Assembly (NCBI GenBank): GCA_017410245.1
Contig: JAFQRE010000042.1
Location: forward strand, 136,536-200,535
Direction of reading: 5' to 3'
Source of the DNA: Bacteroidaceae bacterium
GTDB lineage: Bacteria > Bacteroidota > Bacteroidia > Bacteroidales > Barnesiellaceae_A
DNA length: 64,000 nt
In this document: piece after piece, positions 531 through 63,662 of the stretch
How positions within the stretch are numbered: the first letter of the stretch is position 1
Layout of the letters: the number at the start of each line of letters is the position of its first letter
Program-made: the position numbers and the translations under genes
The notes under the pieces: model-generated
What the model was told of the DNA's origin: nothing
The model's input: only the letters and a program-made list of their open reading frames with translations
The model's database searches: none

Positions 531-531
531 T

Positions 532-1239
532 ATGGGTGTAGAAAGATTTAGAGGAGAATCCGCTCCTAACGCAGAGATGAAGTGTCTTTGTGTTTTAGTT
601 ATGGATGTATCAGGCTCAATGGAACCTTGCATTGAAGAGTTAAATGATGCACTTAGAAATTTTTTCAAAGACATTGAATATGCAAGAGGCTTGCCCGAAT
701 CAACAAAGGATCAATTAGAAATTTGCATATATGCCTTTGATGAAGAAGTAATGTTGAAGCGAAATCCTTGCTTACTTAAACCAGGTGAAGTTCCAGCTAA
801 ATTAAATCAAAGAGGAAGTACAACTGAATCAGTCGCTGCATTGCGAGCCGCTATTCAAATGGTTGAAGATCGCAAAGAGTTTTACAAAGATACAGGCCAA
901 CCATATTATAGACCGTGGATTGTGTTTATGACAGATGGTGAGCCATACCCATATAGAGAAAATGAGATTGCTGAAATCGAGGAACAGATTAGACTTGATG
1001 AAAAGGCAAAAAAATATCGTATAATGGGATTAGGTGTTGGAGAGAATATCTCAGAGAAAACCTTAAGACGACTTACAAATAATAATGCACGTAAATTAAA
1101 AGGAACTAATTTTGGTGCATTCTTCGATTGGTTAAGTAATAGTATGGGCATTATAGTTTCTTCTAAACCTGGTCAAAAAGTAGATATTTCTGCCGGTAGT
1201 GATGAATGGATGTCTAAATTTGATGATTTTGAAGTATGA
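532..1239 (+). CDS. TerY-type von Willebrand factor A (vWA) protein
   Basis: 235 aa. MIDAS motifs are present: VLVMDVSGSM (DxSxS), RGSTTE (Thr) and FMTDGEP (Asp). Size and layout fit stand-alone TerY-like vWA proteins. Confidence 0.8.
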   Translation: MGVERFRGESAPNAEMKCLCVLVMDVSGSMEPCIEELNDALRNFFKDIEYARGLPESTKDQLEICIYAFDEEVMLKRNPCLLKPGEVPAKLNQRGSTTESVAALRAAIQMVEDRKEFYKDTGQPYYRPWIVFMTDGEPYPYRENEIAEIEEQIRLDEKAKKYRIMGLGVGENISEKTLRRLTNNNARKLKGTNFGAFFDWLSNSMGIIVSSKPGQKVDISAGSDEWMSKFDDFEV

Positions 1240-2390
1240 TAAATTTAATAGAAAAGGTAACCTCCTTTTTTAAAAATCAAGTCTTTCAAAATACTCTTGA
1301 TATGGAAAAAAACAAGAGCATATCCAATGATTTTGACATAAATGGTTCTGATGTAATAGAAGATGATGTGGTGGTAACTTCAGAATCAAATAATGATAAT
1401 CCGTCCAATAATATTTCAGAAGAGGGTACTGTTAGCACCCTCTCTGAAAATGTTAAAATAGAAGAGATTCCAATAATATCGGATTCTGTGTCTAAAAATG
1501 ATATAGATGAAATTAATAAAGTTTATTTAAGTACTTTACAGTCCTGTGACAATGGTTATGTTATAGGTGCATCTATTCGTGGACGTTCGCACGAACTACA
1601 TGATACTCCATGTCAAGATTATCATATATTTGAAAAAGTTATAGACGGATGGTACATCCTAGCTGTTTCTGATGGTGCAGGCTCTGCTAAATATGCAGCT
1701 CGAGGAGCTAAAGCAAATAGTACCTTTTCAGTACGATTGGTAAAACAAATGTTGATGGAAAAACGCTGGATAGAAAACGAATATTTCCCGACAGAATTAG
1801 AATGGTATATTGAAGCTCGTGCAATATTTGAACGAATAAAACTAATTATTAGGACAAAAGTATCTGAATTGGAGGAGGAAAGTGTAGAAGCTGATTTTAA
1901 TGCTACGCTTTTGTTAGCAATAGTAACACCTAAAGGAGTTTTAACGGCTCATATTGGTGATGGCCGTATGGGATATTTGTCAGATGATGATGAATGGAAA
2001 GCGATGATGACTCCACATAAAGGAGATGAAGCCAATCAAACAATTTTTTTACAAAGTGGTTGGACGTCTCCTATGGTTCCAGCGTTTAAACTTGGTGGAA
2101 TATTTGTACCAGAAATAACTATTGTACGCGGTATGCCAAAGGCCATTGTTCTAATGAGTGATGGTTGTGAACGTGCATCATGGGAGTGCTCCATTATGGA
2201 TATTGAGAAGGGTAAGTTTGTTGATAATAATATTCCTTATAAGGGGTTTATGAATCCATTAATAGAGGCTTTAGATAGTTGTTCTCACGAAGATAGAATG
2301 CAACTCTTTGTGGATATATTGAACCATGGGACCACGGCCTGCGAGAGAGAATTAGATGATAAAACAATGTTATTAGCAGTATTCAAATGA
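1236..2390 (+). CDS. PP2C-family protein phosphatase with low-complexity N-terminal region
   Basis: 384 aa. ATGA start/stop overlap with the vWA gene. The first ~110 aa are Asn/Ser/Asp-rich. The rest carries PP2C_2-like motifs: GASIRGRSH, CQDYH, LAVSDGAGSA, HIGDGR, LMSDG. Confidence 0.75.
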   Translation: MINLIEKVTSFFKNQVFQNTLDMEKNKSISNDFDINGSDVIEDDVVVTSESNNDNPSNNISEEGTVSTLSENVKIEEIPIISDSVSKNDIDEINKVYLSTLQSCDNGYVIGASIRGRSHELHDTPCQDYHIFEKVIDGWYILAVSDGAGSAKYAARGAKANSTFSVRLVKQMLMEKRWIENEYFPTELEWYIEARAIFERIKLIIRTKVSELEEESVEADFNATLLLAIVTPKGVLTAHIGDGRMGYLSDDDEWKAMMTPHKGDEANQTIFLQSGWTSPMVPAFKLGGIFVPEITIVRGMPKAIVLMSDGCERASWECSIMDIEKGKFVDNNIPYKGFMNPLIEALDSCSHEDRMQLFVDILNHGTTACERELDDKTMLLAVFK

Positions 2391-4084
2391 TATATTATAT
2401 ACACAGACAGGGAAAAGATGTTGCGATTGAAACTGAAACTAAAGAACTAAGCAGTGGCGGACAAGGAAAAATCTATAAAATAAGTTCTCCGTATGAATTC
2501 AAGGATTATTGTGTTAAAATCTACAAAAATAAGAAGCACATAGATGAAAACAAAAATAAAATTCAATATATGATTCTTAATCAGCCGAAAAATATAGATA
2601 TGCATAATATTCGTATTTGTTGGCCTGAATACTCTCTCTATGATAATAAAGGGCAATTTGTGGGGTTTGTAATGAAGTTGGCACTTGGCTTCCCAAAAAG
2701 TAGGGATTTGAAAATTTTAAGTATCTATAGCTTTGGAAAAACTATCAAAGAAAAATATCCTGAATGTAAAGAATGGCACGATAAATTTGAATTAACCAAG
2801 TCTTCTGGAACATTGAACCGGATGAAAATGTTGCATAATTGGGCTTTAGCTGTTGAGTTAATACATGAAACGAAAAAGTATGTGATTGTAGATGTTAAGC
2901 CTGATAATGTTTTAGCTACGGCAGACGGTCGAATTTCAATTGTTGATGCAGACTCATTTCAGATTAATGATGGGGCGAATGTTTATAGAGGGCCAGTTGC
3001 AACGCCTGAATATTTCCCTAAGTTTGCCAAATATATTGAACGACAAAAACGACTTCAAACCATAGATTGTGATAATTTTGCACTAGCTGTCGCTTTTTAT
3101 AAAATTCTTATAGGAACGCATCCCTTTAGTGGTTTTAAATTAAAGCCCCCCTATAATACCGATGAATATGCAGATATTTCATCACATATTGAGGCTGAAT
3201 TGTTTGCATTTGGTAAAAAAACAGATTATATAGAATATTTATCTATAAATAATATGCATGAGCGATATAAAACTCTACCGCTTATTTTAAGAAGTATGTT
3301 TAAATCTGCATTAACAAATCAAAGTAATTTACCCATGGCTACAGAATGGAAAAATGCATTTAAACAAGTTCTGAACGGTCAAGGTGCATTTAAGCCTCAT
3401 GCAGATGTAAAGTTTAATAGTACCCCGAACTCAGAAATGAAATGTCTTTGCGTTTTAGTGTTGGATGTGTCTGGTTCGATGAAATTATGTATTAATAGTT
3501 TAAATGAAGCCCTCGATAAATTTATTCGGGATATACGTAAAGGTGTCAATGGTTTCAATGAAAGTTCGAAGGAATGTATAGAATTATCTATTATCCAATT
3601 TGATAAAGATGTGAAAGTATTGCATTACCCTTCATTAGTAGAACAAATTACCAATATCCCCATCTTAACTGTTCGTGGATTAACCACGAATACCTTGTGT
3701 GCATTGGATACAGCATTCGACGTAGTGGAAAAGAGAAAAAGAGAATATAAAGATTTAGGTATACCCTACTATAGGCCATGGATAATTTTACTTACTGATG
3801 GTAATCCGAATCCACTTAATCAAAATGAACTGAATAAATATGCTTCTAAAATTTCAAATGACATAGCTGAGTATAAATATATGCTAACGGCTATTGGTAT
3901 TGGTGAAAAGATTGATAAAAATATTTTATCAATGTTGAGTGATGGTAATTATAGTTTTATTAAACAAAATGGTTTCTCAAAATTCTTTCAATATTTAAGT
4001 GCTAGTATTAGTAACCCGGATAAGTGTTGTTCTCATGATGATTTGTTAGGAGAAATAGATGATTCTCTATCTATTATGTTGTAG
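2387..4084 (+). CDS. Hanks-type Ser/Thr protein kinase fused to a C-terminal vWA domain
   Basis: 565 aa. ATGA overlap with the PP2C gene. Kinase motifs: GGQGKIYK (G-loop), CVKIYK (beta3 Lys), VDVKPDNVL (catalytic loop), IVDADSF (DFG-like), ATPEYFP (APE-like). The C-terminal half is a second vWA domain (VLVLDVSGSM, RGLTTN, LLTDGNP), clearly paralogous to ORF 532-1239. Confidence 0.8.
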   Translation: MIYYIHRQGKDVAIETETKELSSGGQGKIYKISSPYEFKDYCVKIYKNKKHIDENKNKIQYMILNQPKNIDMHNIRICWPEYSLYDNKGQFVGFVMKLALGFPKSRDLKILSIYSFGKTIKEKYPECKEWHDKFELTKSSGTLNRMKMLHNWALAVELIHETKKYVIVDVKPDNVLATADGRISIVDADSFQINDGANVYRGPVATPEYFPKFAKYIERQKRLQTIDCDNFALAVAFYKILIGTHPFSGFKLKPPYNTDEYADISSHIEAELFAFGKKTDYIEYLSINNMHERYKTLPLILRSMFKSALTNQSNLPMATEWKNAFKQVLNGQGAFKPHADVKFNSTPNSEMKCLCVLVLDVSGSMKLCINSLNEALDKFIRDIRKGVNGFNESSKECIELSIIQFDKDVKVLHYPSLVEQITNIPILTVRGLTTNTLCALDTAFDVVEKRKREYKDLGIPYYRPWIILLTDGNPNPLNQNELNKYASKISNDIAEYKYMLTAIGIGEKIDKNILSMLSDGNYSFIKQNGFSKFFQYLSASISNPDKCCSHDDLLGEIDDSLSIML

Positions 4085-4094
4085 AATAAGATTT

Positions 4095-4259
4095 ATGAGC
4101 AAACTAAAGATTCCTGGAGTTTCATTTTCGTTGAAGCGTGCATTAGGATTGACAAAACTGAAGCAGAAGATTAGTCGCCAGACTGGAATTCCTATGAGTG
4201 AGAGCGGAATAGAGCGTAAATTAGGTAGATTGTTGTTGGATAAAATCTTTAAGAGATAA
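4095..4259 (+). CDS. small basic hypothetical protein (54 aa)
   Basis: This uses the internal ATG of the 66-aa track ORF. Product is MSKLKIPGVSFSLKRALGLTKLKQKISRQTGIPMSESGIERKLG..., Lys/Arg-rich. No family recognised. Confidence 0.35.
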   Translation: MSKLKIPGVSFSLKRALGLTKLKQKISRQTGIPMSESGIERKLGRLLLDKIFKR

Positions 4260-4268
4260 GTTCTTACT

Positions 4269-5093
4269 ATGGATTCTAAAGTAGCCATTCGAGGATTAGA
4301 TATTTCGACCATACTACATCCTGAAGACAAATCGACGATGGATACCCTGAAAAAGATTCCGGGGTTTAAGACTGTTGTTGATAGGACTGTGGGCAGTGTA
4401 ATGGAAAAATATGCTGCGGTTGAATATTCGGGAGAGGGTATCAATGTATCGGAGCAATGCCTTCCTGCTTTGAATAGTCAGATTAGGGAAGCTTGCAGAA
4501 TACTTGACATGCAGGAGATTCCAAATTGCTCTATAAACTGGTTCTACCATATTGGCTCTTTTTCTGTTGGTGAAAAGAGCAAGCGAATGGTTTTTCCATC
4601 TGGTTCAATAGATTTATTGACAGCGGAGGAACTGAATTTCTTGATAGGTCACGAACTGGGGCACATGAAGTGCGGTCATAAAACGTATCATATGTTGACT
4701 GAGGCTATGTATCGTCCGATGGTAGGCTCGGACATGGAATTTATAATGAGTTTGATTAAGATGCCTCTGCTCAATTGGTATCGAGTGTCGGATTTTACGG
4801 CTGACCGTATGGGACTTTTGTGCTGCCAAGATATTGAGGTGGCCATCAAGACTATGATAAAGATGGCCGGATTGCCCAAGAAATACCATAATCAGATTCA
4901 TATTGAGTCTTTCATTCAGCAAGCAATAGATTTCAACAAGAACCATTCCGGTTTTTTTGATGAGATGGTGAAGTATCTTTCTATTAATGCTGCTTGTATG
5001 CCTTGGTTGGTATTGAGAGCCTCTGAGTTATTGATATGGTATCAGTCGGGGGAGTATGATAGAATTTTGAATAAAAGTAAATCCATCAGATAA
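4269..5093 (+). CDS. M48-family Zn-metallopeptidase (soluble type)
   Basis: 274 aa. FLIGHELGHMKCGH is an HExxH motif in the typical M48 context (NAF-like segment, then EL..hhhHElGH). No obvious transmembrane segments. Confidence 0.7.
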   Translation: MDSKVAIRGLDISTILHPEDKSTMDTLKKIPGFKTVVDRTVGSVMEKYAAVEYSGEGINVSEQCLPALNSQIREACRILDMQEIPNCSINWFYHIGSFSVGEKSKRMVFPSGSIDLLTAEELNFLIGHELGHMKCGHKTYHMLTEAMYRPMVGSDMEFIMSLIKMPLLNWYRVSDFTADRMGLLCCQDIEVAIKTMIKMAGLPKKYHNQIHIESFIQQAIDFNKNHSGFFDEMVKYLSINAACMPWLVLRASELLIWYQSGEYDRILNKSKSIR

Positions 5094-5117
5094 AAGTTAA
5101 ACTTAATATTAGTTGTT

Positions 5118-5324
5118 ATGAATGCAAGTGTAAACAATCGGGTTAATCAGGAAAACATTCTTGCGATATTGAACAACAATGTTATCAAGGAAGAGAGTAG
5201 GAAGGAAGCTATGATAGCTATGGGACTTTCGTCTTGTCAGGTGGCTTGTATGTCATATAAATGCTGCACCGGGCATGGTAGTGGAGGAAAACACTCCCGA
5301 CATTCCTATAAGATTAAGCATTAG
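5118..5324 (+). CDS. putative RiPP precursor peptide (68 aa, Cys-containing core)
   Basis: The stop lies 2 nt before the radical SAM start. The N-terminal ~35 aa look leader-like (NQENILAILNNNVIKEESRKEAM). The C-terminal part, SSCQVACMSYKCCTGHGSGGKHSRHSYKIKH, has 4 Cys and a His/Lys-rich tail. Confidence 0.5.
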   Translation: MNASVNNRVNQENILAILNNNVIKEESRKEAMIAMGLSSCQVACMSYKCCTGHGSGGKHSRHSYKIKH

Positions 5325-5326
5325 CA

Positions 5327-6556
5327 ATGGAGATACGGACACGCTCTGGTAATATATACTCTTACAACAAACATACCGGCGAGATTCTTGGCGGTTCTAT
5401 AAGTGCGCAACTTCCTGTGTGGGATTTTGCGCCTTTTGTCTCTTTTGAGTCAATGCCGCAAGTCGATTCGTTTATCTTGGGGATAACAGAGCAATGTAAT
5501 CTTCGTTGTACTTATTGTTGCTACTCCGGGAGCTATGTTAATAAGCGGGTGCACAATATCACCTCTATGGACTCAAGGGGCATTGATGAAATTCTTGCAT
5601 TTATAGATTCATTTACAGGCAAGAGACCGATTAAATTGTTTATATACGGAGGAGAGCCTTTGCTCAACTACAACTTGGTTAAATATACTATTGAAAAATC
5701 TCGCAAACGATGGAGCAATGATGTGAGTTTTACGATCTCCACAAATGGCACGACCTTGACCAAGGAGCGCATTGATTGGTTGGTGGCTAATAATATTGTA
5801 TTGGCTCTATCTATTGATGGGACAAAACCATTTCACGATAGTTATCGAGTAGACGCACAAGGTAATGGTTCATATACGAGAGTTTATGATGCGTTGAAGT
5901 ACATCAAGACAACTTATCCAGAGTATGCAAAAGAGATGTCGTTGATTATGACCCTCGCATCGTTTGACAAGATCGTAGATATTGCGGAGGCGTGGCATAA
6001 TGATGAGATTTTACACGATATGTCACCCACAATGATGAACTCCTTAGCTCCGAATTTCAGCCAAGGTGTTGATCGGGCAGACTACGAAGAGGTGAAAGAG
6101 TTCTACGATACGTTGCTTGATACTTATGAGAAACATCAAGATTGGGTTGTATTGAGAAAGTTATTAGAGTCTTGTGTTGCATACTGGAAAGAGCGCCCAA
6201 TCTTTGAGCCGTCATCTGCTGTGCCTATGGCCACTTGCCTGCCTAATAACACAAAGTTGTACATCGATTCTAACCTTCAGATAGGTGTATGCGAAAAAAT
6301 GTCTGATAACTACCGCATAGGCAATATCAAGGACGGCATTGATTGGGTTAAGGCTAATTCAGTCGTTCGTGATTACTACAATAAGCGAGTTGAGCGTTGT
6401 AAAGATTGTTCTGCTGTTAGAATGTGCAATATGTGCTTGACAGCGATGGAGTATACAGATGAACAATGGGATATCTTGTGTCACAACGAGCTGGTATATA
6501 CTCGAGTGTTTATGTATCTGTTTTGTGAAATGGCAGAAAGAGGTTTGATAAGATGA
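5327..6556 (+). CDS. radical SAM enzyme with C-terminal SPASM-like Cys cluster (peptide-modifying maturase candidate)
   Basis: 409 aa. C57-x3-C61-x2-C64 (EQCNLRCTYCCYSG), a GGEPLL SAM-binding motif, and C-terminal Cys clusters CLPNN...GVCEKM and CKDCSAVRMCNMC. Confidence 0.85.
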   Translation: MEIRTRSGNIYSYNKHTGEILGGSISAQLPVWDFAPFVSFESMPQVDSFILGITEQCNLRCTYCCYSGSYVNKRVHNITSMDSRGIDEILAFIDSFTGKRPIKLFIYGGEPLLNYNLVKYTIEKSRKRWSNDVSFTISTNGTTLTKERIDWLVANNIVLALSIDGTKPFHDSYRVDAQGNGSYTRVYDALKYIKTTYPEYAKEMSLIMTLASFDKIVDIAEAWHNDEILHDMSPTMMNSLAPNFSQGVDRADYEEVKEFYDTLLDTYEKHQDWVVLRKLLESCVAYWKERPIFEPSSAVPMATCLPNNTKLYIDSNLQIGVCEKMSDNYRIGNIKDGIDWVKANSVVRDYYNKRVERCKDCSAVRMCNMCLTAMEYTDEQWDILCHNELVYTRVFMYLFCEMAERGLIR

Positions 6557-7047
6557 GTGTTATTCCCAATGTAAGTACAAAGCATAGTCTGCTTACTCAT
6601 GTATCAGAAGAAGATATGAGCACACTCCGAGAAATCTTCGAGGATGTCGAGACCAAAAGATTTCTTCCAGAGCTATATGAACTATTAGATGCTCCTGCAG
6701 GCTTACAAAAATTTGTTTCAACCTTTGAACTATATTCGCAGAATGGTGAAGGGTATTTGTGGGGCATTTATTGTGATGATACGTTGCTCGGATTTGTCGC
6801 AGTAATAGATTTGTCATACAATCCTTCTCTTTTTTACGCTACCCACCCGGCATATCGTTGTCATGGATATATGAAAGGTGCTATATCGGCTGTCTTAGAT
6901 TATATTGGAAAGAGAAGTCTGTGTCATAATATATCAACCGATGTGTATAAAGCGAATAGCACCTCTATACATATTCTACAACAATTAGGTTTTAGTGTTT
7001 ACAAAGAGGACTGTGATAAAGTTTATTTGTCAAAGGTACTTGCTTAG
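6553..7047 (+). CDS. GNAT-family N-acetyltransferase (RimJ/RimL-like)
   Basis: 164 aa. ATGA overlap with the radical SAM gene. GNAT-like core: LLGFVAVIDL, YRCHGYMKGAISAVLDYI, NSTSIHILQQLGF. Confidence 0.65.
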   Translation: MSVIPNVSTKHSLLTHVSEEDMSTLREIFEDVETKRFLPELYELLDAPAGLQKFVSTFELYSQNGEGYLWGIYCDDTLLGFVAVIDLSYNPSLFYATHPAYRCHGYMKGAISAVLDYIGKRSLCHNISTDVYKANSTSIHILQQLGFSVYKEDCDKVYLSKVLA

Positions 7048-7179
7048 TTTCGAGTCGTTTATTGATAAAACAATGTAGAATAGGGGTTGCTAAAGTAGTT
7101 TGAATGATAGTTTTTTGGTGAGTGTAACCGTCTATATAAGAAAAACAAAAGAAATTATAACATTATAATAATAGTTCAT

Positions 7180-7626
7180 ATGAGTAAATACAATGATTAT
7201 GGAGAATTTATGGTAGCAGTGCTTAATGAGGCTGATTATAAGTGCCATCTAAACTCTTATGGAAGTTTAGTTAAGTTGTTTGGTTTAAGTGGAACCAATG
7301 AAAAGCTGATATCAATTATAATTACAATTTTTGAGATAGGCTGGCCTGCATTTAAGGCGACTTGTGCCTTATTGATTCTTGGACCTATTGCTTTTGTTGG
7401 TGCACTTACAGCATTTATTGTAGGAGGAGTAGGAGCAATCATTGTGGCTGCTTTGGCTATTTACGGTGGAGTAAAAGCAATTCATCTTCTGTATGCCAAC
7501 AAGACAACTCCACTTAAAATATACGAAGTTGGCAAAAAGTACAAACCTCGTTTTGATGATCATATCAATGAGTACTCGTATATTGACAATCTGATTGACG
7601 AAGCTGCAAATGATTTAATAAACTAA
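7180..7626 (+). CDS. small membrane protein, Gly/Ala-rich transmembrane hairpin
   Basis: 148 aa. The hydrophobic stretch ISIIITIFEIGWPAFKATCALLILGPIAFVGALTAFIVGGVGAIIVAALAIYGG predicts 2-3 TM helices with small-xxx-small packing motifs. Confidence 0.5.
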   Translation: MSKYNDYGEFMVAVLNEADYKCHLNSYGSLVKLFGLSGTNEKLISIIITIFEIGWPAFKATCALLILGPIAFVGALTAFIVGGVGAIIVAALAIYGGVKAIHLLYANKTTPLKIYEVGKKYKPRFDDHINEYSYIDNLIDEAANDLIN

Positions 7627-7636
7627 CTCTATAATT

Positions 7637-7891
7637 ATGGCAAATATTAATTACTACAAATGCTCTCGTTGTGGAGAGATTACACGACAAATTGAAATTA
7701 GTCAGAGAGAATTGACTGCTATTGAAGGCGGTGCATGGTGGGAACAAGCTTTTTCAGCTATAAATGATATAGATGGATTATCTTTTTTATTTAGGGAGGC
7801 AGGAATCCTTCGACCATATAAATGTACTAAATGTGGACGTGTTTCTAATAGGTCATTTGGAGGAGATGACAAAGGATATCTTGCTGGATAA
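7637..7891 (+). CDS. zinc-ribbon protein (CxxC...CxxC)
   Basis: 84 aa. The pairs CSRCGE and CTKCGR lie ~55 aa apart. Confidence 0.5.
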   Translation: MANINYYKCSRCGEITRQIEISQRELTAIEGGAWWEQAFSAINDIDGLSFLFREAGILRPYKCTKCGRVSNRSFGGDDKGYLAG

Positions 7892-7912
7892 TAAAGATTA
7901 ACTAAGAACAGA

Positions 7913-8002
7913 ATGATGACTATAAATCCCCTAGGTTGTATTATTGTTGGAGTAGTTTCGGTTGTAGCGATCTATGAGGATACGAAAAAGAATGAACAAT
8001 AA
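7913..8002 (+). CDS. possible 29-aa hydrophobic micropeptide
   Basis: Hand-translated ORF, below the track cutoff: MMTINPLGCIIVGVVSVVAIYEDTKKNEQ. It has one predicted TM helix and a charged tail. There is no other support. Confidence 0.2.
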   Translation: MMTINPLGCIIVGVVSVVAIYEDTKKNEQ

Positions 8003-8114
8003 ATATTGTAGAAATTATCGATGGTTATCGTCTATTTGATAGACCCAAATGTAACACAAGGTATCTTAATCTATTAGTAATAATAAGACAAATAACTAAT
8101 TAATAATAACGATT

Positions 8115-8300
8115 ATGGGCATTATAGGAGCAATATATCATGGAATTAAAGGTGGCTATAAGCTTTTGGTTGATGATTCAGATGCAGCAAGTGAAGAATT
8201 AGACAAGGCTGTTGATAGTCTTCATAAAACCGTTGTTATCGACCCAATTGGAATTAGTGACATACCAGATATCATTGATGATATATCTGAAGAGTGCTAG
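8115..8300 (+). CDS. small acidic hypothetical protein (61 aa)
   Basis: Track ORF with a Gly-rich N-terminus (MGIIGAIYHGIKGG) and a very acidic C-terminus (DIPDIIDDISEEC). Confidence 0.35.
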   Translation: MGIIGAIYHGIKGGYKLLVDDSDAASEELDKAVDSLHKTVVIDPIGISDIPDIIDDISEEC

Positions 8301-8427
8301 ATGCAATAGTGTATCTATATACTCATCTATGCGATGATTAAAGGTAAAGATTTAATTGAGCAAAAGATCCGGGATTCTAAAAACAAGAAGTGATAGGAAG
8401 TTTTCTAAAACCTTAATATTCAAAATT

Positions 8428-8721
8428 ATGGCTTGGAATAGTTTAACAGATAGACAAAAGTCGTTAGACCGTGCTATTGAGCAGTGTGGTGTCAAGTTGG
8501 ATAATTCAGATGCCTGCCTTCGTAGGGTTATGTCTGCAATTGGTGCATCTGTATCAGAAGCTGCTTTCGTTAAGCAACGCATTGAGTTACGACTAAGAAC
8601 TGCTGCGCTACTTGATAAGACCGATGCATTTATTTCAAATACGGAGCAAATGCTTGACCGATTTGAAAAGGACGATGAAGAGTGGCGCAAACGTGCTAAA
8701 AAGCTAGGTATAAATCTTTAA
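8428..8721 (+). CDS. hypothetical protein (97 aa, helical)
   Basis: The track ORF begins at a TTG (8356). The first ATG, at 8428, gives MAWNSLTDRQKSLDRAIEQ.... No family recognised. Confidence 0.4.
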   Translation: MAWNSLTDRQKSLDRAIEQCGVKLDNSDACLRRVMSAIGASVSEAAFVKQRIELRLRTAALLDKTDAFISNTEQMLDRFEKDDEEWRKRAKKLGINL

Positions 8722-8734
8722 AAACAAAATAATT

Positions 8735-8938
8735 ATGGGTATTTTCGTAAATGACAGAGCTTGGAATCTTAAGCAGGCCAAAGATAGAAAAGAACATGGC
8801 GATTGGCATGTTAGAAAGGCTAATGAAGCGTTGAGAAGAGGTGATACTTCGGCTTATAATGACCATATGTACCGTTCAAAAATTTACTATAATGAAGCTG
8901 ATGCATATATGGCTTCTGCTAGAAAATCTACCAAATAA
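8735..8938 (+). CDS. hypothetical protein (67 aa)
   Basis: Track ORF, charged and helical, co-directional with its neighbours. Confidence 0.4.
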   Translation: MGIFVNDRAWNLKQAKDRKEHGDWHVRKANEALRRGDTSAYNDHMYRSKIYYNEADAYMASARKSTK

Positions 8939-9004
8939 TGAGTTTTATATGGCAGTTTTGAGAGGAGTGTTTAAGTTTTCTCATCTATAAGACTATATGC
9001 TACT

Positions 9005-10063
9005 ATGACTAAAGACGCGATTGATCAAATATTCGACCGAGCCCGCCACGGAGATGTCTTTGCCCAAACACTTATGGGGCAAATACTCTGCGAGGGCAAG
9101 TATGTGCAGCAAGATAGGCAGAACGGCATAGGCTGGCTTAGAGATGCAGCGCAGTGTAATTGCTTATACGCAAAGGAACTCATCAATGAGTATTTGAGTG
9201 GGCAAGTAAATGCACCTCATGGCACAACTCATGAACAAAGACCAAACTCAACTGAGGACAATACTGATGTGGATAATCTTGCAGAACTGAAATCGCTGAT
9301 TGGTCTTGAGCGTGTAAAACAAGATGTCGATTCGTTGCGTAACCTTATCAAGATTCAGGCCATGCGTAAGCAACAAGGCTTGCCCAATACTTCGGTATCG
9401 TACCACTGTGTTTTCTCGGGCAACCCCGGTACGGGTAAGACTACGGTTGCTCGCATCGTAGCCGGTATTTATAAAGAGCTTGGCATCTTGAAGAAGGGGC
9501 ACCTTGTAGAAGTAGATCGTTCGAAACTTGTTGGCGAATATGTAGGTCAAACAGCCCCTAAGACCAATAAGGTGATAGATGAGGCTCTCGATGGCGTGCT
9601 ATTTATCGATGAGGCATACACTCTCGTTGGCGAAGGAAGCGATTATGGTGCTGAGGCTATAGCTACTCTGCTCAAACGTATGGAGGACGATCGTGATCGT
9701 TTGGTTGTCATACTTGCCGGTTATACGAATGAGATAAAGGAGTTTATTGACTCCAATCCCGGGTTGCAATCTCGCTTCAATCGTTACATACAGTTTGATG
9801 ACTATTCGGCCGAGGAATTGACCGAGATTTTCAAACGCAACTTGCGCAAGTCGAGATACAAGATTAAGCGTGATGCCTTCGAGGAGTTGCAAAGTGTCAT
9901 TGAGCGTGCTGTCGCCTCACGCGACAAGAACTTCGGTAATGCACGATATGTACGCAACCTTTTTGAGAAGGTTGTTCAGAATCAGGCAAACCGCTTGGCC
10001 AGAATGGCTAGTATTGATAACGATGAGTTGAGTATAATTACTCGCGAAGATATTAACTTCTAA
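9005..10063 (+). CDS. Sel1-repeat + SpoVK/CbbX/EccA-type AAA+ ATPase
   Basis: 352 aa. The N-terminus is Sel1-like (GDVFAQTLMGQILCEGKYVQQDRQNGIGWLRDAAQ). Walker A is GNPGTGKTTVARI and Walker B is GVLFIDEAY. The segments LVGEYVGQTAPKT and RLVVILAGY are typical of the CbbX/SpoVK clade. Confidence 0.85.
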   Translation: MTKDAIDQIFDRARHGDVFAQTLMGQILCEGKYVQQDRQNGIGWLRDAAQCNCLYAKELINEYLSGQVNAPHGTTHEQRPNSTEDNTDVDNLAELKSLIGLERVKQDVDSLRNLIKIQAMRKQQGLPNTSVSYHCVFSGNPGTGKTTVARIVAGIYKELGILKKGHLVEVDRSKLVGEYVGQTAPKTNKVIDEALDGVLFIDEAYTLVGEGSDYGAEAIATLLKRMEDDRDRLVVILAGYTNEIKEFIDSNPGLQSRFNRYIQFDDYSAEELTEIFKRNLRKSRYKIKRDAFEELQSVIERAVASRDKNFGNARYVRNLFEKVVQNQANRLARMASIDNDELSIITREDINF

Positions 10064-10074
10064 CCCAGACGAAT

Positions 10075-10602
10075 ATGGACGAACTAAACAATCTTTTCGG
10101 CGGAGCCGAGCAGTTGTGGCAATATATCAAGATATATGCTGCCAAAGCCGGTCGTGAGGCTACGCGCGTAGTGTTGGAATTGTACTATGTGGTCAAATCA
10201 CCGCATACACCGGCATTGGATAAGACTCTTATCATCGCTGCGCTCGGATATCAACTTCTTCCTAATGACTTAATGAGTCGAGAAAAATATGGTTGGTTGG
10301 GTATCCTTGATAATGGAGCTGCCTTGGCATTAGCATATAATAGAGTTAAAACCCGTGTTACGCCACAAATTGAGGCGCAAGTAGATGCAATACTTGACCA
10401 GTGGTTTGGCTCGGACATACAACAGACTCAAGCTCCCATAGAGCAACCTCAAATAAATAATGACAGTAATAATGGAGGAAACAACTATTGGGAACCACAG
10501 GCCTCAACATTACCCTCTACACTCGATTCCCCTATTAATTCAAATCGTCCTAATACTCCACTGGGAGGTTATAGTGATGATGAAGATGTTGTGATTGATT
10601 GA
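10075..10602 (+). CDS. DUF1232 (YkvA)-like protein with Gln/Asn/Pro-rich tail
   Basis: 175 aa. IIAALGYQLLPNDLMSREKYGWLGILDNGAALALAY resembles the DUF1232 core (Y..sP.DliPD..p.lG.lDD). The C-terminal 60 aa are low complexity. Confidence 0.5.
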   Translation: MDELNNLFGGAEQLWQYIKIYAAKAGREATRVVLELYYVVKSPHTPALDKTLIIAALGYQLLPNDLMSREKYGWLGILDNGAALALAYNRVKTRVTPQIEAQVDAILDQWFGSDIQQTQAPIEQPQINNDSNNGGNNYWEPQASTLPSTLDSPINSNRPNTPLGGYSDDEDVVID

Positions 10603-10666
10603 TGAAGAGTGCAAGGCTTACTGAAATTCTATAATATATAACTATGGTATATAAATTATAAGTATT

Positions 10667-10828
10667 ATGAATCACTATTGTATTATAATTAAAGAAAAAG
10701 ACAGAGAAAAAGAGTGGGTTTGTCACTTGTTTAGAGAGGAGGAATTATCTGAAGAGGATATAATAAGAATTTATGGACTCAAAGATGGAAGTGTTGAATG
10801 GTATTGTATTAATAAAATGAAGGATTAA
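10667..10828 (+). CDS. possible 53-aa ORF
   Basis: Hand-translated: MNHYCIIIKEKDREKEWVCHLFREEELSEEDIIRIYGLKDGSVEWYCINKMKD. It fills an otherwise empty 300-nt gap. No other support. Confidence 0.2.
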   Translation: MNHYCIIIKEKDREKEWVCHLFREEELSEEDIIRIYGLKDGSVEWYCINKMKD

Positions 10829-10906
10829 TACAATATCCTCCTAATACTAATTGAGTGAAACTTTTAGTTCTATGTATAATAATGATATATTGGCAATTAT
10901 AACAAT

Positions 10907-11563
10907 ATGTTTAACAAATTCAGGTGTTGGTTATTCAATCATACTTCTATGAATGAGTTCCTGAAGATGAGTCAACGCTTCAAGAAGTTTGGCTTGTCGC
11001 CCAATGATGTGGAGGACGCTATTAAATCGGCGTGCGATTTCTTTCATATCCCCATGCCTTGTATGATTCAAGACCTGACCAATGTAAAGAATGGGCAGAC
11101 TATGTTTGTAAACTACAATAGAGGTAGTTATGATGATGATGTGTTGTGCTTCAATATGCAACAATTGGTCGATATGAAGGTTGATAGCAAAGAGGCATTC
11201 AGCCTTGTCATGACTCACGAGTGTGCTCATCGTGTATTGCAAAACACACAGTTCCCGGGAGTGAATAATGGCATATGGGAACATGAACTTGCAGCCGACT
11301 TTTTGATGGGCTGTCGTGCCGGACTATGGAATATGGACGAGTCTAAACTTGCAGTGGGGCTAATCCTAACCAATGGAAGCCCCACACACCCCGAAGGTAC
11401 AATAAGGGCTCTTTTTATTCGTCATGGCAAGTATAAGGCGATAGAAATGCGAAATAAATCCATACCATTGACTATTCCCAATTTGCTTAATGAATTTATG
11501 AAGTACCGACAAGAGAACTTAGAACTTATACATCAGTATCAACGAAAGTTTTATAGATTTTAA
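10907..11563 (+). CDS. putative Zn-metallopeptidase (HExxH)
   Basis: 218 aa. LVMTHECAHRVLQN is followed by EHELAADFLMG. The start codon is uncertain, with alternative Met at residues 15 and 21. Confidence 0.5.
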   Translation: MFNKFRCWLFNHTSMNEFLKMSQRFKKFGLSPNDVEDAIKSACDFFHIPMPCMIQDLTNVKNGQTMFVNYNRGSYDDDVLCFNMQQLVDMKVDSKEAFSLVMTHECAHRVLQNTQFPGVNNGIWEHELAADFLMGCRAGLWNMDESKLAVGLILTNGSPTHPEGTIRALFIRHGKYKAIEMRNKSIPLTIPNLLNEFMKYRQENLELIHQYQRKFYRF

Positions 11564-11722
11564 GAAATGGACAGAATAGACATATAGCCATAGTTTTCTC
11601 CCATTATATTCTCATATAAATAAAAATCGGCTATATTTTTATCTGTAAAAGATATTTTTAGCTCGGGTTACTACTCTATACGATAAAAGAGTTGGTAATC
11701 CGAGCTAAAAGTTTATAAAGAC

Positions 11723-13507
11723 ATGAATGCAACATTGAGCATAGGACAAAAGGTTGGAGATTTCTGCGTTGAGGAGTTTGTCAAGACTTCTTCTGATAAT
11801 CGTGGGGAGAGTTACTTCGTAAGTGACAAAGATGGACGTAAGGCGTTGATGAAGTTGTATGCTGCCGACGCCGAAAGTCACACGCTTGAGTGTGAGGTAA
11901 ATACTGTGTTGTCAATAAACTCTGCATTTGTGCCTATGGTTGCAGTCGGAGATATTGAGCATAATGGTGTTGCTTTTCGCTATATTGTTCGCGAGTATGT
12001 CGAAGGTGAACGCTTGTCGGAGATTGTTAAAGCCGGTCGTCTGTATTCGTGGGAGGAGGCTATGCCTATTATCCTGCAAGTATTGAATGCATTGAAGCAT
12101 CTTCACTCGCTAGATAAGGCGATTATTCACAATGATATTACGGCTCGTAACATTCTTATCAATGAAGAAAGGAAACAAGTCTATATCATCGGTATGGGGC
12201 ATATGTCACATCAATGCAATGGTAGGGCAACTTTTTGTACTAAAGACCTGAACAATTGGTATCGTGCTCCTGAGACCTTCAAAGGTATCTACGGTGTGAA
12301 GTCCGACATCTTCTCTGTTGGAGCTTTGTTGTATACGATGCTTGTAGGCTTCGAGCCATGGGGTGTGATTGCTGATGTATATGGCCCCGATGTGGATAAA
12401 AGTATGTTGAAACGTCTTCGCTCTATTGGTGATGAAATCATAGATGATATTCAAATTACCGATGAGCAGAAAGTGATTTTGGGTAAGATGATTGCTCTTG
12501 ATTACGATAAGCGCTATAGCTGTGTCGATGATGTCGTAAAAGGCATAATACATGGTGTTTCAAAAAAGGATCTTCAAGAGTCACCTTGGTATAGAGTGGT
12601 CAATGAAGAAGCCGATGAGGAGGCCGATGTAGAGCTTGACATAGAAGAAGATGTTGACACAGATGCAACAACAAACGGTGTAAACGGAGGCTTTGCCGAT
12701 GTAGCAGGCATGGCCGATGTGAAAAGTATGCTATATAAAGAAGTGATGTTTGTGATGCAAAATAAAGAGAAGGCCCGTAAATACCGCTTGAAAGCACCCA
12801 ATGGTGTGCTCTTCTATGGCCCTCCGGGGTGTGGTAAGACTTTCATTGCCGAAAAGTTTGCCGAGGAGTCGCATCTTAACTTTATGATGGTTAAGGCTTC
12901 TGATTTGGGTAGTATATATATTCATGGTTCTCAAGGTAAGATTGCAGAACTTTTCGATGAGGCGACTAAGAAAGCTCCAACTGTCATTTGCTTTGACGAA
13001 CTTGATGGAATGGTGCCCGATCGTACATCTATTCAGAACGAAGGTTTATCGGGAGAGGTCAATGAGTTTTTGAGTCAGCTTAATAACTGCTCGGATCGTG
13101 GCATCTTTGTGATAGGTACTTCAAATCGTCCGGAGAAGATAGATCCGGCAATACTCCGTACCGGTCGTATGGATAAGATGGTTTATATCCCTATGCCTGA
13201 TGCTGAGGCCCGCAAAGAACTCTTTAAGATTTACCTTGATGACAGATACTGTGACGAAAGTATCGATCTTGATGAGCTTGCTCAGAAAAGCGAAGGGTAT
13301 GTTGCTAGTGACATAAGTTTTATGGCAAACGAGAGTGCGCTGGAGGCGGCAATGGCTGATGTGCCTATAACTCAAGATTTGGTTCTTGGAGTGATGCGCA
13401 AAGCTCGCCGTTCGGTAACGCAAAATGACGCTGCCGACTATGAACGTATGCGTAAGAAATTTGAGCAGCAAAGCTATAGCCATGAACGCCACAGAATTGG
13501 ATATTAA
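11723..13507 (+). CDS. protein-kinase-like domain fused to classical AAA ATPase (copy 1)
   Basis: 594 aa. N-half is a eukaryotic-like kinase fold: ALMKLY, IIHNDITARNILI, YRAPE, SDIFSVGALLYTML. The DFG position reads IIGMGH. An acidic linker follows (EEADEEADVELDIEEDVDTD). C-half is a classical AAA module: Walker A GPPGCGKT, Walker B VICFDELD, sensor-1 GTSNRP, SRH/Arg finger PAILRTGRMD. Confidence 0.85.
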   Translation: MNATLSIGQKVGDFCVEEFVKTSSDNRGESYFVSDKDGRKALMKLYAADAESHTLECEVNTVLSINSAFVPMVAVGDIEHNGVAFRYIVREYVEGERLSEIVKAGRLYSWEEAMPIILQVLNALKHLHSLDKAIIHNDITARNILINEERKQVYIIGMGHMSHQCNGRATFCTKDLNNWYRAPETFKGIYGVKSDIFSVGALLYTMLVGFEPWGVIADVYGPDVDKSMLKRLRSIGDEIIDDIQITDEQKVILGKMIALDYDKRYSCVDDVVKGIIHGVSKKDLQESPWYRVVNEEADEEADVELDIEEDVDTDATTNGVNGGFADVAGMADVKSMLYKEVMFVMQNKEKARKYRLKAPNGVLFYGPPGCGKTFIAEKFAEESHLNFMMVKASDLGSIYIHGSQGKIAELFDEATKKAPTVICFDELDGMVPDRTSIQNEGLSGEVNEFLSQLNNCSDRGIFVIGTSNRPEKIDPAILRTGRMDKMVYIPMPDAEARKELFKIYLDDRYCDESIDLDELAQKSEGYVASDISFMANESALEAAMADVPITQDLVLGVMRKARRSVTQNDAADYERMRKKFEQQSYSHERHRIGY

Positions 13508-13536
13508 TATATTGTATAACTTAAATACGTGAAGAC

Positions 13537-13917
13537 ATGAAAATGATTGACAAAGTAATGAATGAGTTGCAGAAACAAGGTTTTCTGCCCCAACGTGAAG
13601 ACTTCGGTATTGCTTTCAAGTACCAAATGGCCGGTTACCTCTTTTTGGCCGATAAGACTGACGATGACTACTTCAGTCTTTATATCCCGTACTTCTTTGA
13701 GGTAGATGAGGAGAATAAAGCAGATGTGCTTGAGGCCATGAATGCTATCAATAATGACGTGAAAGTGGTAAAACTTGTGATTAATGATGGTTATGTATGG
13801 GCTTGTTTTGAAGAAAAGTTACCGGAAAATGCCAATATAGAGGACATTTTATTTTATTCTATTGTAACTTTGTACCTTTCTCGTCAGCAATTTTACGAGA
13901 AGTTGAAAGAGGTATAA
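13537..13917 (+). CDS. hypothetical protein (126 aa; faint YbjN/chaperone-like resemblance)
   Basis: Track ORF 30 nt downstream of the kinase-AAA gene. A hairpin plus T-run follows at 13955-13992. The family assignment is not secure. Confidence 0.45.
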   Translation: MKMIDKVMNELQKQGFLPQREDFGIAFKYQMAGYLFLADKTDDDYFSLYIPYFFEVDEENKADVLEAMNAINNDVKVVKLVINDGYVWACFEEKLPENANIEDILFYSIVTLYLSRQQFYEKLKEV

Positions 13918-13992: not shown

Positions 13993-14080
13993 AAGATGAC
14001 GCCGTCTTATTTTATTATATCCCAAGTGGTGCGAGTGCCACTTGGGGGCAACTGAAAAGCAATATTAAAACATTAATAGT

Positions 14081-62827: not shown

Positions 62828-62844
62828 TATTTCTATAACTATTA

Positions 62845-63507: not shown

Positions 63508-63586
63508 AATAACCCACCCGGCGAGGTGAATTAAGCATTGAGTTAAAGCCTGTCGAGAGTGGAATGAGAAGAAGTAATACCCATAA

Positions 63587-63654: not shown

Positions 63655-63662
63655 GTTAAAGT

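Follow-up and report, generated by a model that had tools for sequence, protein, structure and literature searches.

The Clp ATPases use a [LIV]-G-[FL] tripeptide for docking to ClpP. To our knowledge, the partners of ClpP all come from a single AAA+ clade and use surface loops for docking, and we know of no AAA protein of the classical clade that acts as a ClpP partner. Several classical AAA proteins oligomerise through C-terminal elements. The chaperones of type III secretion hold unfolded segments of their clients and pass them on for stripping and unfolding by an ATPase. Among kinase folds, CASK does not contain the DFG Asp and reportedly performs phosphotransfer without Mg. IetAS is said to be a defence system of Gao et al. 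2020 and originally a plasmid toxin-antitoxin pair.

The locus described here is situated in a window of 64 kb, i.e. the whole stretch of DNA that was analysed. It is built around a gene for a protein of 594 amino acids, in which a protein-kinase fold is joined by an acidic, disordered linker to an AAA module of the p97-D2 type, followed by a flexible tail ending in RIGY. No description of this kinase-fold and AAA architecture was found in a full-text literature search. As part of a tentative explanation for the locus as a whole, the protein may be an ATPase that represents a hitherto undescribed protein-unfoldase family.

Layout of the fusion gene and its AAA motor

The fusion gene occupies positions 11723-13507 of the plus strand, where an ORF of 594 aa with the Pfam domains Pkinase, AAA and AAA_lid_3 could be assigned. 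This agrees with the preliminary description of the locus, and all motifs quoted there are present at their places in the translation. Over 116 full-length relatives with identities of 48-73% were found; the residue counts mentioned in this study are based on 116 of them. The acidic stretch between the two domains, which had also been recognized before, is located at 12578-12706 on the same strand. It is predicted to be disordered in the AF2 model (pLDDT below 50 over residues 287-328), and the family alignment showed that both its length and its sequence vary among the relatives.

An inverted repeat with 16-nt arms (94% complementary) and a 23-nt spacer is present at 11656-11710, ending 13 bp 5' of the start codon, and could serve as an operator or as a hairpin of the 5' leader. 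At 14021-14046, a perfect 9-bp hairpin was detected 104 bp 3' of the gene for the 126-aa partner protein discussed below. This hairpin was not called a terminator since it is not followed by a T-run. Promoter and terminator scans around the fusion gene gave nothing above shuffled expectation.

The AAA module, including the large subdomain and the lid, is encoded at 12707-13477 (plus strand) and was placed in the classical clade based on its motifs and Pfam domains. AAA (PF00004) was matched at residues 362-490 with an E-value of 7.3e-34, and AAA_lid_3 scored 29 bits against a cut-off of 27.2. These two domains were assigned by Pfam instead of an HCLR-clade module (AAA_2 with a ClpB_D2-small lid). 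A genuine ClpX, available for comparison with the AAA module, is present in one of the surveyed loci (L016). In the plus-strand translation, Walker A reads GPPGCGKT (12818-12841), the aromatic pore loop SIYIHG (12911-12928) and Walker B VICFDELD (12983-13006). The SRH, GTSNRPEKIDPAILRTGRMD (13115-13174, plus strand), carries N468 as the sensor-1 Asn and R479 and R482 as the two Arg fingers. Walker A, Walker B, the pore loop and these three residues are invariant in 116/116 relatives.

The best structural matches of the module were the D2 domains of p97/Cdc48, with an identity of 33-34%. None of the named orthologous groups of NCBIfam was reached, with scores of 177.5 vs 802.65 for CDC48, 154 vs 600 for FtsH and 154 vs 500 for PAN. 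The 594-aa protein contains no second AAA ring, protease domain or MIT domain. The kinase half thus precedes a fully intact unfoldase module, in the place where classical AAA proteins carry an N-domain for binding of substrates or adaptors, as the earlier idea of a recruitment domain for an unfoldase had supposed.

Catalytic residues of the kinase-fold half and of the paralog

Based on Pfam, PDB alignments and the AF2 model, the N-terminal domain (residues 1-285, encoded at 11723-12577 on the plus strand) has a protein-kinase fold and is predicted to be a pseudokinase. Pkinase (PF00069) was found at residues 73-267 with an E-value of 7.9e-26 and 91.5 bits against a cut-off of 31.7, and the model showed a confident bilobal domain with pLDDT mostly between 80 and 96. 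The residues K44, D138, N143, E184, D195 and R264 are retained, while there is no Gly-rich loop, no Lys in the catalytic loop (T140) and no DFG Asp (G157). The turn between beta1 and beta2 is KTSSDNRGESY, and a Gly-rich loop of the GxGxxG type was found in no relative in the family alignments. The beta3 Lys K44, located in the context ALMKLY (11843-11860, plus strand), is kept in 114/116 relatives. The equivalent of the catalytic loop, HNDITARN (12128-12151, plus strand), retains H136 in 114/116, N137 in 116/116 and D138 in 107/116 relatives. Position 140 is occupied by Thr or Asn in all 116 and by Lys in none. A YRAPE motif is present at 12260-12274 on the plus strand.

The resemblance of HNDITARN to tyrosine kinases, to which the first reading had pointed, is superficial. 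The Pkinase score of this domain compares with only 47.3 bits for PK_Tyr_Ser-Thr, and the position of R142 is variable, with His, Gly, Ser, Gln, Asn, Thr or Cys in the relatives and the other clades. The Arg which compensates for Lys in tyrosine kinases is not conserved at R142 among the relatives.

At the DFG position the protein reads IIGMGH (12185-12202, plus strand), without the Mg-binding Asp. In a phmmer alignment to PknB of S. aureus (4eqm), kifDFGia is paired with yiiGMGhm and HRDIKPQN with HNDITARN. This Asp had been noted as absent by eye, and both the PknB alignment and the family agree: the position holds Gly in 114/116 members of the clade of the window. The motif is not misaligned, since relatives show IIDLGH or LIDFGY in the same column. 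Because Asp is present there in every other clade of the NJ tree, its loss represents a derived trait of the clade of the window. Judged from these residues, the kinase half in this clade is pseudokinase-like throughout, as had been suggested.

K44, D138 and N143 remain, so that some phosphotransfer or nucleotide-dependent switching is possible. An atypical active kinase, perhaps Mg-free as CASK, could mark clients or itself and in this way gate the unfoldase, as a fused analogue of the degradation tagging by McsB-ClpC. Conservation of these three residues, together with the scaffold residues APE, D195 and R264, is in favour of such an activity. The DxG Asp retained in other clades points in the same direction, as it indicates that the ancestral domain may have been active. 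Phosphatases are also found near some of the loci, namely a PP2C or other phosphatase at 1236-2390 of the window and an LMW-PTP and a metallophosphatase flanking the L019 gene. However, the whole family lacks both the Gly-rich loop and the Lys of the catalytic loop, and almost the whole clade of the window lacks the DFG Asp; about half of this clade also has Ser in place of the alpha-C Glu.

A further argument against an active kinase comes from a paralogous kinase-like/AAA gene at 61046-62827 on the plus strand (alternative start at 61019), which according to the alignment is more degenerate than the first copy. The two proteins are 44% identical over their full length; their kinase halves share 32% identity and their AAA halves 59%. 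The paralog carries HNN instead of HND, LGTSQ at the DFG position and Arg instead of the beta3 Lys. In contrast to the first copy, it no longer has the catalytic Asp, the Asn or the beta3 Lys. Its AAA motor is nevertheless perfect, with Walker A, Walker B and a HIGYVA tail retained. The loss of these residues next to a perfect motor argues that catalysis is dispensable, and we consider an active kinase to be quite improbable. Across the family, the kinase half diverges approximately twice as fast as the AAA half.

A second copy of the gene had been proposed at 61046-63507. The copy itself could be located at 61019/61046-62827, while 62845-63507 belongs to a separate ORF of 220 aa. This orphan gene (216-220 aa) is situated 3' of the paralog, where no YbjN-like gene is present. 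It was considered as a diverged YbjN-like gene and rejected, with an hhalign probability of 0.4%.

Partner gene, C-terminal tail and ClpP

The gene at 13537-13917 (plus strand) starts 29 bp 3' of the fusion gene and encodes a conserved partner of 126 aa, assigned to the fold of YbjN and the type III secretion class I chaperones by means of neighbourhoods, AF2 and Foldseek. It adjoins the kinase-AAA gene in 10/19 surveyed loci, and this adjacency holds down to 27-37% identity of the 126-aa protein. The AF2 model (pLDDT 91) showed an alpha-beta sandwich as in the YbjN/class I chaperone family. Top matches in Foldseek were E. coli YbjN (6vu7), AmyR (5fr7), CesT, SycE, SycT and ExsC, with a probability of 1.0 and TM values of 0.55-0.70; Pfam YbjN (PF10722) remained below its gathering score for this protein (17.3 vs 22 bits, E-value 0.0058). 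The proposal in the preliminary description to express both genes together was apt, because 13537-13917 is the only conserved partner.

The architecture, which at first could not be placed in any system, is that of a family of considerable size, in which three types of operon recur. Kinase-AAA is accompanied by a YbjN-like gene alone in the first type, by YbjN-like and ClpP genes in the second, and by Hsp70-like and TerB-like genes in the third. The top matches of the family fall into approximately 45 clusters at 50% identity. The surveyed loci are mostly from metagenome assemblies. In a sister clade the operon consists of a YbjN-like gene, the kinase-AAA gene and a dedicated ClpP paralog, in this order. 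The latter starts 4-15 bp after the kinase-AAA gene in genomes of Prevotella and Ca. Egerieisoma, where it is not followed by clpX, and it is recognized by PF00574 (E-value 1e-52) and 46% identical to a housekeeping ClpP. When this paralog was used as bait in metagenomes, kinase-AAA was located directly upstream in 32/32 loci with upstream DNA, and one or two YbjN-like genes preceded kinase-AAA in 24/24 ClpP-linked loci with enough upstream DNA. The ClpP of L016 was not taken as evidence, as it is an ordinary tig-clpP-clpX-recQ gene with coincidental proximity. A viral origin was also considered and rejected; IMG/VR contigs with full-length relatives carry the type-B operon, and the phage identity of these contigs is putative.

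The flexible tail of the 594-aa protein (13478-13507, plus strand; pLDDT below 50 for residues 590-594 in the AF2 model) ends in R-I-G-Y and represents a candidate docking motif. IGY forms the last three residues and is thus at the free C-terminus rather than in a loop; a similar MGY is found in the loop of a Bacteroidales-type ClpX. The pattern [IVLM]-G-[FYLW], also written as [RK]-[IV]-G-[FY], occurs within the last 8 residues of 115/116 relatives. An IGF tail as a general feature of AAA proteins was rejected, since only 2/137 other classical AAA relatives carry the motif. In the matches listed, these two bearers (L022, L023) rank just after the full-length loci and count among the nearest of the AAA-only relatives. 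In the ClpP-linked clade, [IV]-V-x-[GS]-[LF] or I-V-x-x-W stands in place of this tail, and this switch to another hydrophobic C-terminus coincides exactly with the clade that gained its own ClpP. As the ClpP-adjacent clade does not have the IGF motif, the link of the tail to ClpP rests on covariation and resemblance. Alternatively, the tail could contribute to the stability of the hexamer or to binding of the partner protein.

Such a role of the tail, in ring assembly or in partner binding, would fit a remodeller or segregase that works independently of a protease, like Cdc48, Vps4, Msp1 and SpoVK. In the clade of the window, its hexamer would extract or disassemble a client complex recognized by the pseudokinase domain and the YbjN-like partner, without ClpP. 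No ClpP gene was found in the 64-kb window, and the surveyed neighbourhoods of the same clade also had none beside the kinase-AAA gene. In the basal clade, the companions of kinase-AAA are a TerB-like protein and an ATPase of the Hsp70-like type; this is a context of remodelling rather than of proteolysis. The closest structural relatives, the p97/Cdc48 D2 domains, and the use of C-terminal elements for oligomerisation in classical AAA proteins can also be brought forward for a remodeller. The strict operon of the sister clade with ClpP argues against it, and so does a tail that resembles the ClpP-docking tripeptide and covaries with the acquisition of ClpP. We regard a remodeller without ClpP as unlikely.

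Our preferred reading is an unfoldase that selects its clients and probably delivers them to ClpP, with its gene in a variable stress or conflict island. In the proposed mechanism, the hexamer would thread client proteins through its pore, and the fast-evolving pseudokinase domain, which may still bind nucleotide, would act as a sensor or recruitment platform. The chaperone-like partner, as a dimer, would hold or present the client, similar to the secretion chaperones that serve the type III secretion ATPase. Docking of the C-terminal IGY tail into the hydrophobic pockets of the ClpP ring of the cell would then lead to degradation of the clients. Within the Bacteroidales genome, the module would be a cassette of this variable island for stress or conflict, and selective proteolysis would most likely be triggered by a signal of stress or invasion. 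Taken as a whole, a pseudokinase-sensing, chaperone-partnered and ClpP-docking unfoldase cassette for selective proteolysis is the best explanation at present, although a tentative one, with slightly less to be said for it than against it.

It is possible, though rather doubtful, that these genes represent a new class of ClpP-activating unfoldases derived from the classical (Cdc48/proteasomal) AAA clade. Such proteins would dock by a free C-terminal [IV]-G-[FY]; a kinase fold, active in some clades and dead here, and a secretion-chaperone-like adaptor would choose the clients, and signal-triggered proteolysis would serve Bacteroidota of the gut and the rumen in phage defence or in the response to stress.

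Island context and comparison with known systems

The G+C content of the island is 0.33-0.42, compared with 0.44-0.52 in the core, and the flanking genes differ among the homologues. The location in an island, as proposed before, is thereby upheld, but the upstream AAA+ gene and the "peptidase" do not qualify as conserved partners. No Pfam, NCBIfam or PADLOC match was obtained for the "peptidase" (10907-11563), which has an HExxH motif and is not conserved beside the homologues. This ORF, a 133-aa ORF and a 190-aa ORF were all rejected as partners because they are not conserved or are common to only one close relative, and the SpoVK-like AAA gene is present in only 3/19 loci. Genes that recur nearby are those for vWA, PP2C, kinase, TerB, M48 and SpoVK-like proteins. 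A TerY-P-like triad of vWA, PP2C and kinase is situated in the same island.

An ordinary housekeeping gene for a chaperone or protease, conserved in the lineage, could account for the identical protein with identical flanks seen in several metagenome assemblies, which probably are from one species. Homologues of 50-73% identity are, however, located in unrelated neighbourhoods. Since the gene contexts differ from genome to genome, these are genes of islands rather than syntenic housekeeping genes. The G+C content below that of the core, the two diverged paralogs in separate islands of one genome and the lack of any matching NCBIfam equivalog also speak against a housekeeping gene. This explanation is already largely refuted, and we give it hardly any chance.

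A defence role is plausible. The earlier inference of a defence system was not borne out by the databases, as no PADLOC or NCBIfam defence model was matched; known defence systems were rejected with only partial domain matches to IetA, PD-T4-6, MAD6 and TRIP13. In PADLOC, no model was matched by the partner proteins, the proteins of the type-B operon or the ClpP paralog. The kinase-based models (PD-T4-6 and MADS MAD6) matched the kinase domain only, MAD6 with 73.8 bits against a cut-off of 460.

The best match of the AAA half in the defence databases was IetA, with E-values of 1.6e-28 for the first gene and 8.5e-35 for the paralog. IetAS is described as consisting of a protease toxin and an ATPase antitoxin (PMC13069673). 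By analogy, the locus could encode a toxin-antitoxin-like or abortive-infection pair, in which the ATPase continuously restrains or turns over a harmful partner (the 126-aa protein or a protease) until the pseudokinase domain senses a trigger from a phage and this partner is set free. The island location, the sporadic distribution and the fast-evolving sensor half are consistent with such a pair, as is the TerY-P-like triad, since vWA/PP2C/kinase modules of this type were reported as defence systems (PMC10542128). On the other hand, the IetA equivalog (NF042959) was matched with only 86.6 bits against a cut-off of 510, no S8 subtilase of the IetS type was found in the neighbourhood and no partner protein matched a PADLOC model. 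We also know of no toxic activity of the YbjN/chaperone fold. A toxin-antitoxin-like pair thus appears to be improbable.

If the ClpP-docking unfoldase cassette is true, a motor of the classical clade that docks on ClpP by its tail would blur the distinction between the Clp and proteasome designs, as proteasomal ATPases dock on the 20S particle, and the search space for regulators of ClpP would be widened. The relatives also form a natural bacterial series from kinase to pseudokinase, in which DxG is kept, the Asp is lost and finally the catalytic Asp, Asn and Lys are lost (paralog). As the motor remains unchanged, this series is useful for asking about the role of bacterial pseudokinase domains. 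The widespread pair of "AAA family ATPase" and "hypothetical protein" in gut and rumen Bacteroidota becomes a testable module of two or three genes.

Compared to ClpXP, ClpAP and ClpCP, the family presents an AAA+ unfoldase, presumably hexameric, that is paired with ClpP in one operon in the sister clade, a tripeptide of hydrophobic residue, Gly and aromatic residue as a candidate for docking and a small accessory protein in the position of an adaptor. The differences are an ATPase of the classical (Cdc48/FtsH/PAN) clade and not of the HCLR clade, a tripeptide at the free C-terminus whereas that of Clp is in a surface loop, an N-domain with a kinase fold, and the absence of an adjacent ClpP in the case of the window gene. 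PAN/Rpt, archaeal Cdc48 and Mpa, with tails of the HbYX type, are the group closest to the AAA module in sequence and structure. They are also classical AAA rings that dock on a self-compartmentalised peptidase by flexible hydrophobic/aromatic C-terminal tails, as would be the case here. In place of the 20S proteasome, the family is linked to ClpP as its peptidase, its tail reads [IV]-G-[FY] where these systems have Hb-Y-X, and there is a single AAA ring with no OB or double-psi-barrel N-domain.

IetAS is likewise a two-gene module around a related AAA ATPase in islands, with a protease as partner; the score far below the equivalog cut-off and the absence of a subtilase partner set the locus apart, and IetA has no kinase domain. 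The type III secretion class I chaperones and YbjN share the fold of the 126-aa partner, with the differences that no secretion apparatus genes are present here, that the ATPase is AAA and not F1-like, and that Pfam YbjN remains below its cut-off. In RNase L, IRE1 and MLKL, a kinase fold whose catalysis is reduced or lost serves a fused output as a ligand- or nucleotide-dependent switch or as an oligomerisation platform, but these examples are from eukaryotes and have an RNase or a membrane-disrupting domain as output instead of an AAA motor. McsB with ClpC-ClpP also couples a kinase-type module to a Clp unfoldase and selects clients for degradation; it is an active kinase, not fused to the unfoldase, and has the fold of the phosphagen kinases, whereas here a Hanks-type fold with key catalytic residues missing is fused to the motor.

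The kinase-AAA protein and its motor

Profile searches and structural modelling of the 594-aa ORF at 11723-13507 (+ strand) established its domain anatomy. A protein-kinase domain could be assigned by Pfam to residues 73-267 (E 7.9e-26) and a classical AAA domain to residues 362-490 (E 7.3e-34), with AAA_lid_3 also present. The AlphaFold2 model, for which 47 relatives were used, has a mean pLDDT of 78 and contains two confident domains separated by a disordered acidic linker (residues 287-328); the final five residues are also disordered. Foldseek showed resemblance of the AAA half to p97/Cdc48 D2 domains (33-34% identity), and the nearest NCBIfam models for this half were CDC48, PAN and FtsH, every score being far under the cut-off. 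The kinase and AAA assignments of the preliminary description hold, and the motifs quoted there were all found at the stated positions in the translation. In the databases these proteins are named only 'AAA family ATPase' or 'hypothetical protein'. Among the matches listed for an N-domain query, dozens of clusters (50% identity) shared this layout, at lengths of about 575-630 aa.

Residue conservation was scored over 116 full-length relatives with 48-73% identity to the protein. Walker A (GPPGCGKT) and Walker B (VICFDELD) are invariant in 116/116, as are the pore-loop aromatic Y399, sensor-1 N468 and the Arg fingers R479 and R482. ATP-driven threading through a hexameric ring is characteristic of the classical AAA clade, and by analogy threading of polypeptides is predicted for this half.

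Kinase half and paralog

In a phmmer alignment with S. aureus PknB, HNDITARN pairs with HRDIKPQN and GMG with DFG. The beta3 Lys is retained in 114 of the 116 relatives, H136 in 114, N137 in all, the catalytic Asp in 107 and N143 in 111, and the APE Glu, D195 and R264 are invariant. Gly occupies the DFG position in 114/116, the catalytic-loop Lys position is always Thr or Asn, and the alpha-C Glu is replaced by Ser in about half; a GxGxxG loop was found in none of the aligned family members. In family alignments the DFG column of remoter relatives reads IID[LM]GH or LIDFGY, so the earlier placement of this position by eye was correct, and a neighbour-joining tree of the AAA half places the loss of the Asp at the base of the window's clade. 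The likeness of HNDITARN to tyrosine kinases turned out to be superficial, since its Arg is unconserved and Pkinase outscores PK_Tyr_Ser-Thr.

A paralog at 61046-62827 (44% identity) has a more degenerate kinase half, with HNN, Ser for the catalytic-loop Asn, LGTSQ at DFG and Arg for the beta3 Lys, and despite these losses its AAA motor is perfect. Between the paralogs identity is 32% in the kinase half and 59% in the AAA half, the former having evolved about twice as fast. Taken together, the residue losses, the further decay beside an intact motor and the faster divergence argue that the fold rather than catalysis is probably under selection in the kinase half of this clade. CASK lacks the DFG Asp, yet is capable of Mg-independent activity, and residual kinase activity may therefore persist here. 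That the protein is an atypical active kinase gating the motor is considered improbable when the retained beta3 Lys and catalytic Asp are weighed with these losses.

The paralog is the first gene of a second island (window 61046-64000, continuing past the window end into adjoining DNA, L131 11812-21782). This island encodes an orphan protein of 216-220 aa, an NrtR-like Nudix regulator, an ADP-ribosylglycohydrolase, a DUF1232-like and a vWA protein, and about eight small proteins of no assigned family. Its content suggests an NAD/ADP-ribose theme.

C-terminal tail and operons of relatives

After a variable stretch, 115/116 relatives carry a basic run followed by [IV]-G-[FY], 0-5 residues from the C-terminus. 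Distant clades end in the same tail, as do two AAA-only relatives (L022 and L023) that are among the closest of the matches listed in the genome scan; it is absent from all others of 137 classical AAA relatives examined. The tail agrees with the [LIV]-G-[FL] tripeptide used by Clp ATPases for docking on ClpP, and one inspected Bacteroidales-type ClpX has MGY at its docking loop. The L022 relative (2499-6873; 424 aa, ending IGFRA), from the acidobacterium Occallatibacter savannae, has a serine resolvase and a T5orf172-domain gene as neighbours, a setting suggestive of mobile DNA.

In Ca. Egerieisoma and one Prevotella genome, the kinase-AAA gene is followed after 4-15 bp by the start of a ClpP gene (PF00574, E 1e-52). 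The two copies of this dedicated ClpP share 83% identity; identity to a housekeeping ClpP is 46%, and no clpX comes after the gene. The dedicated ClpP was used as bait in a metagenome collection, counting loci with a ClpP of at least 73% identity and upstream DNA present (n=32). The kinase-AAA gene, encoding a protein 53-91% identical to that of Egerieisoma, ends 4-93 bp before ClpP in 32/32 loci, and one or two YbjN-like genes precede it in all 24 loci with enough upstream DNA. The operon is found in L093-L124 (rumen and gut metagenomes), L010 and L011; TerB-domain genes and an M48-TerB fusion lie near it in L010. The kinase half of this clade retains HND and IID[LM]GH. Its extreme C-terminus reads [IV]-V-x-[GS]-[LF] or I-V-x-x-W, not IGF, and IGF is kept in the nearest relatives without ClpP (L008, L009); the tail change thus coincides exactly with acquisition of a private ClpP. 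From these sequences we infer that docking motif and receptor ClpP probably covaried. A protease-independent segregase, to be weighed with the D2-like AAA half as well as with this tail and these operons, is an unlikely reading.

In the basal type-B clade (Daejeonella, Muribaculaceae, a contig binned as Flexilinea and another Bacteroidota genome) the kinase-AAA gene, with HNE and DFG, is fourth in a conserved five-gene operon, after genes for a 550-710-aa protein of no assigned family, a coiled-coil or membrane protein of about 305 aa and an Hsp70-like ATPase (about 840 aa), and before one for a TerB-like protein (about 160 aa). The operon occurs in L014 (550-8048), L015, L016, L020 and the IMG/VR contigs L134-L137 and L139; its proteins matched no PADLOC model. 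L141 and L142 encode an AAA protein without the kinase domain. The L016 contig, labelled Flexilinea (Chloroflexota), also carries tig-clpP-clpX-recQ (8683-13758); its type-B operon is closest to Bacteroidota relatives, and the bin assignment may be wrong. At single loci a NACHT protein, a metallophosphatase with LMW-PTP, or a kinase and vWA pair lies beside the kinase-AAA gene.

Island, partner gene and proposed function

The kinase-AAA gene belongs to a co-directional cluster, close to its right end. The cluster has a G+C of 0.33-0.42, versus 0.44-0.52 in the core, which returns at lrgAB, recQ and rpsF-rpsR-rplI. The cluster starts about 9 kb left of the window (adjoining DNA, L214 808-10000) with NusG-like and sigma-70-like (region-2) genes, followed by two M48 peptidases, an 836-aa protein of no assigned family and a DUF4407 protein; no integrase was seen in this extension. 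A dedicated antiterminator or sigma factor may control this cluster of about 24 kb.

Within the window it begins with a DA1-like HExxH peptidase (12-530), a vWA protein (532-1239), a PP2C phosphatase (1236-2390) and a kinase fused to a C-terminal vWA domain (2387-4084), with 4-bp overlaps between genes. This stretch (12-4084) resembles TerY-P modules, reported as defence systems or stress switches (PMC10542128). An M48 peptidase (4269-5093), a CcpM-like radical SAM/SPASM peptide maturase (5327-6556, E 1.6e-54), a GNAT acetyltransferase (6553-7047) and several small ORFs of 61-148 aa follow; 4269-8938 looks like a RiPP-type maturation cassette, and no precursor peptide was identified in it. A SpoVK/EccA/CbbX-type AAA ATPase (TIGR02881, E 7.6e-88, under the cut-off) and an adjoining 175-aa DUF1232-like gene occupy 9005-10602. 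SpoVK-like genes are also found 5' of the kinase-AAA genes of L017 and L019, and further members of the DUF1232-like family are present in L002 and in the paralog's island (L131 17370-17804).

A housekeeping role is very hard to credit, and genes flanking kinase-AAA homologues vary from locus to locus. The exception is the 126-aa partner gene (13537-13917), which starts 29 bp 3' of the kinase-AAA gene. The pair is also kept at the loci of the close relatives P0013, P0052 and P0120 and in genomes of Prevotella, Muribaculaceae and other Bacteroidales, where identity of the partner protein to the window copy falls to 27-37%. E. coli YbjN and AmyR are among the structural matches to the partner's model (pLDDT 91), together with many type III secretion class I chaperones; its score against Pfam YbjN is under threshold. 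A 16-nt inverted repeat (11656-11710, 94% complementary), ending 13 bp 5' of the kinase-AAA start codon, and a perfect 9-bp hairpin (14021-14046), 104 bp 3' of the partner gene, bracket the two-gene cassette.

The variable flanks and low G+C bear out the island placement proposed in the preliminary description. A defence role, also suggested there, is plausible; searches with PADLOC and NCBIfam gave no full match to a defence model. A toxin-antitoxin or abortive-infection pair like IetAS (PMC13069673) would likewise consist of two genes, and is regarded as a poor candidate. With somewhat less than even confidence in the whole, we infer a stress- or invasion-triggered proteolysis cassette: the kinase-AAA protein would act as a hexameric unfoldase, its pseudokinase N-domain would sense a signal or recruit clients, the chaperone-fold partner would present the client, and the IGY tail would dock on the cell's ClpP. 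This model builds on the observed domain anatomy, motif states, conserved gene pair and ClpP and Hsp70-like operons of relatives, to which it adds oligomerisation, threading, an adaptor function, docking of the tail and a trigger as predictions.

Literature searches yielded no account of the kinase-AAA fusion, of its YbjN-like partner or of a classical AAA ATPase in one operon with ClpP. TerB, M48, vWA/kinase and SpoVK-like genes are found again in the vicinity of relatives elsewhere, and the neighbourhood style of the island is like that of Ter-type stress/conflict systems. Set against the known AAA+ unfoldase/protease machines, the N-domain is unusual, and so is the pairing of this AAA clade with this peptidase.
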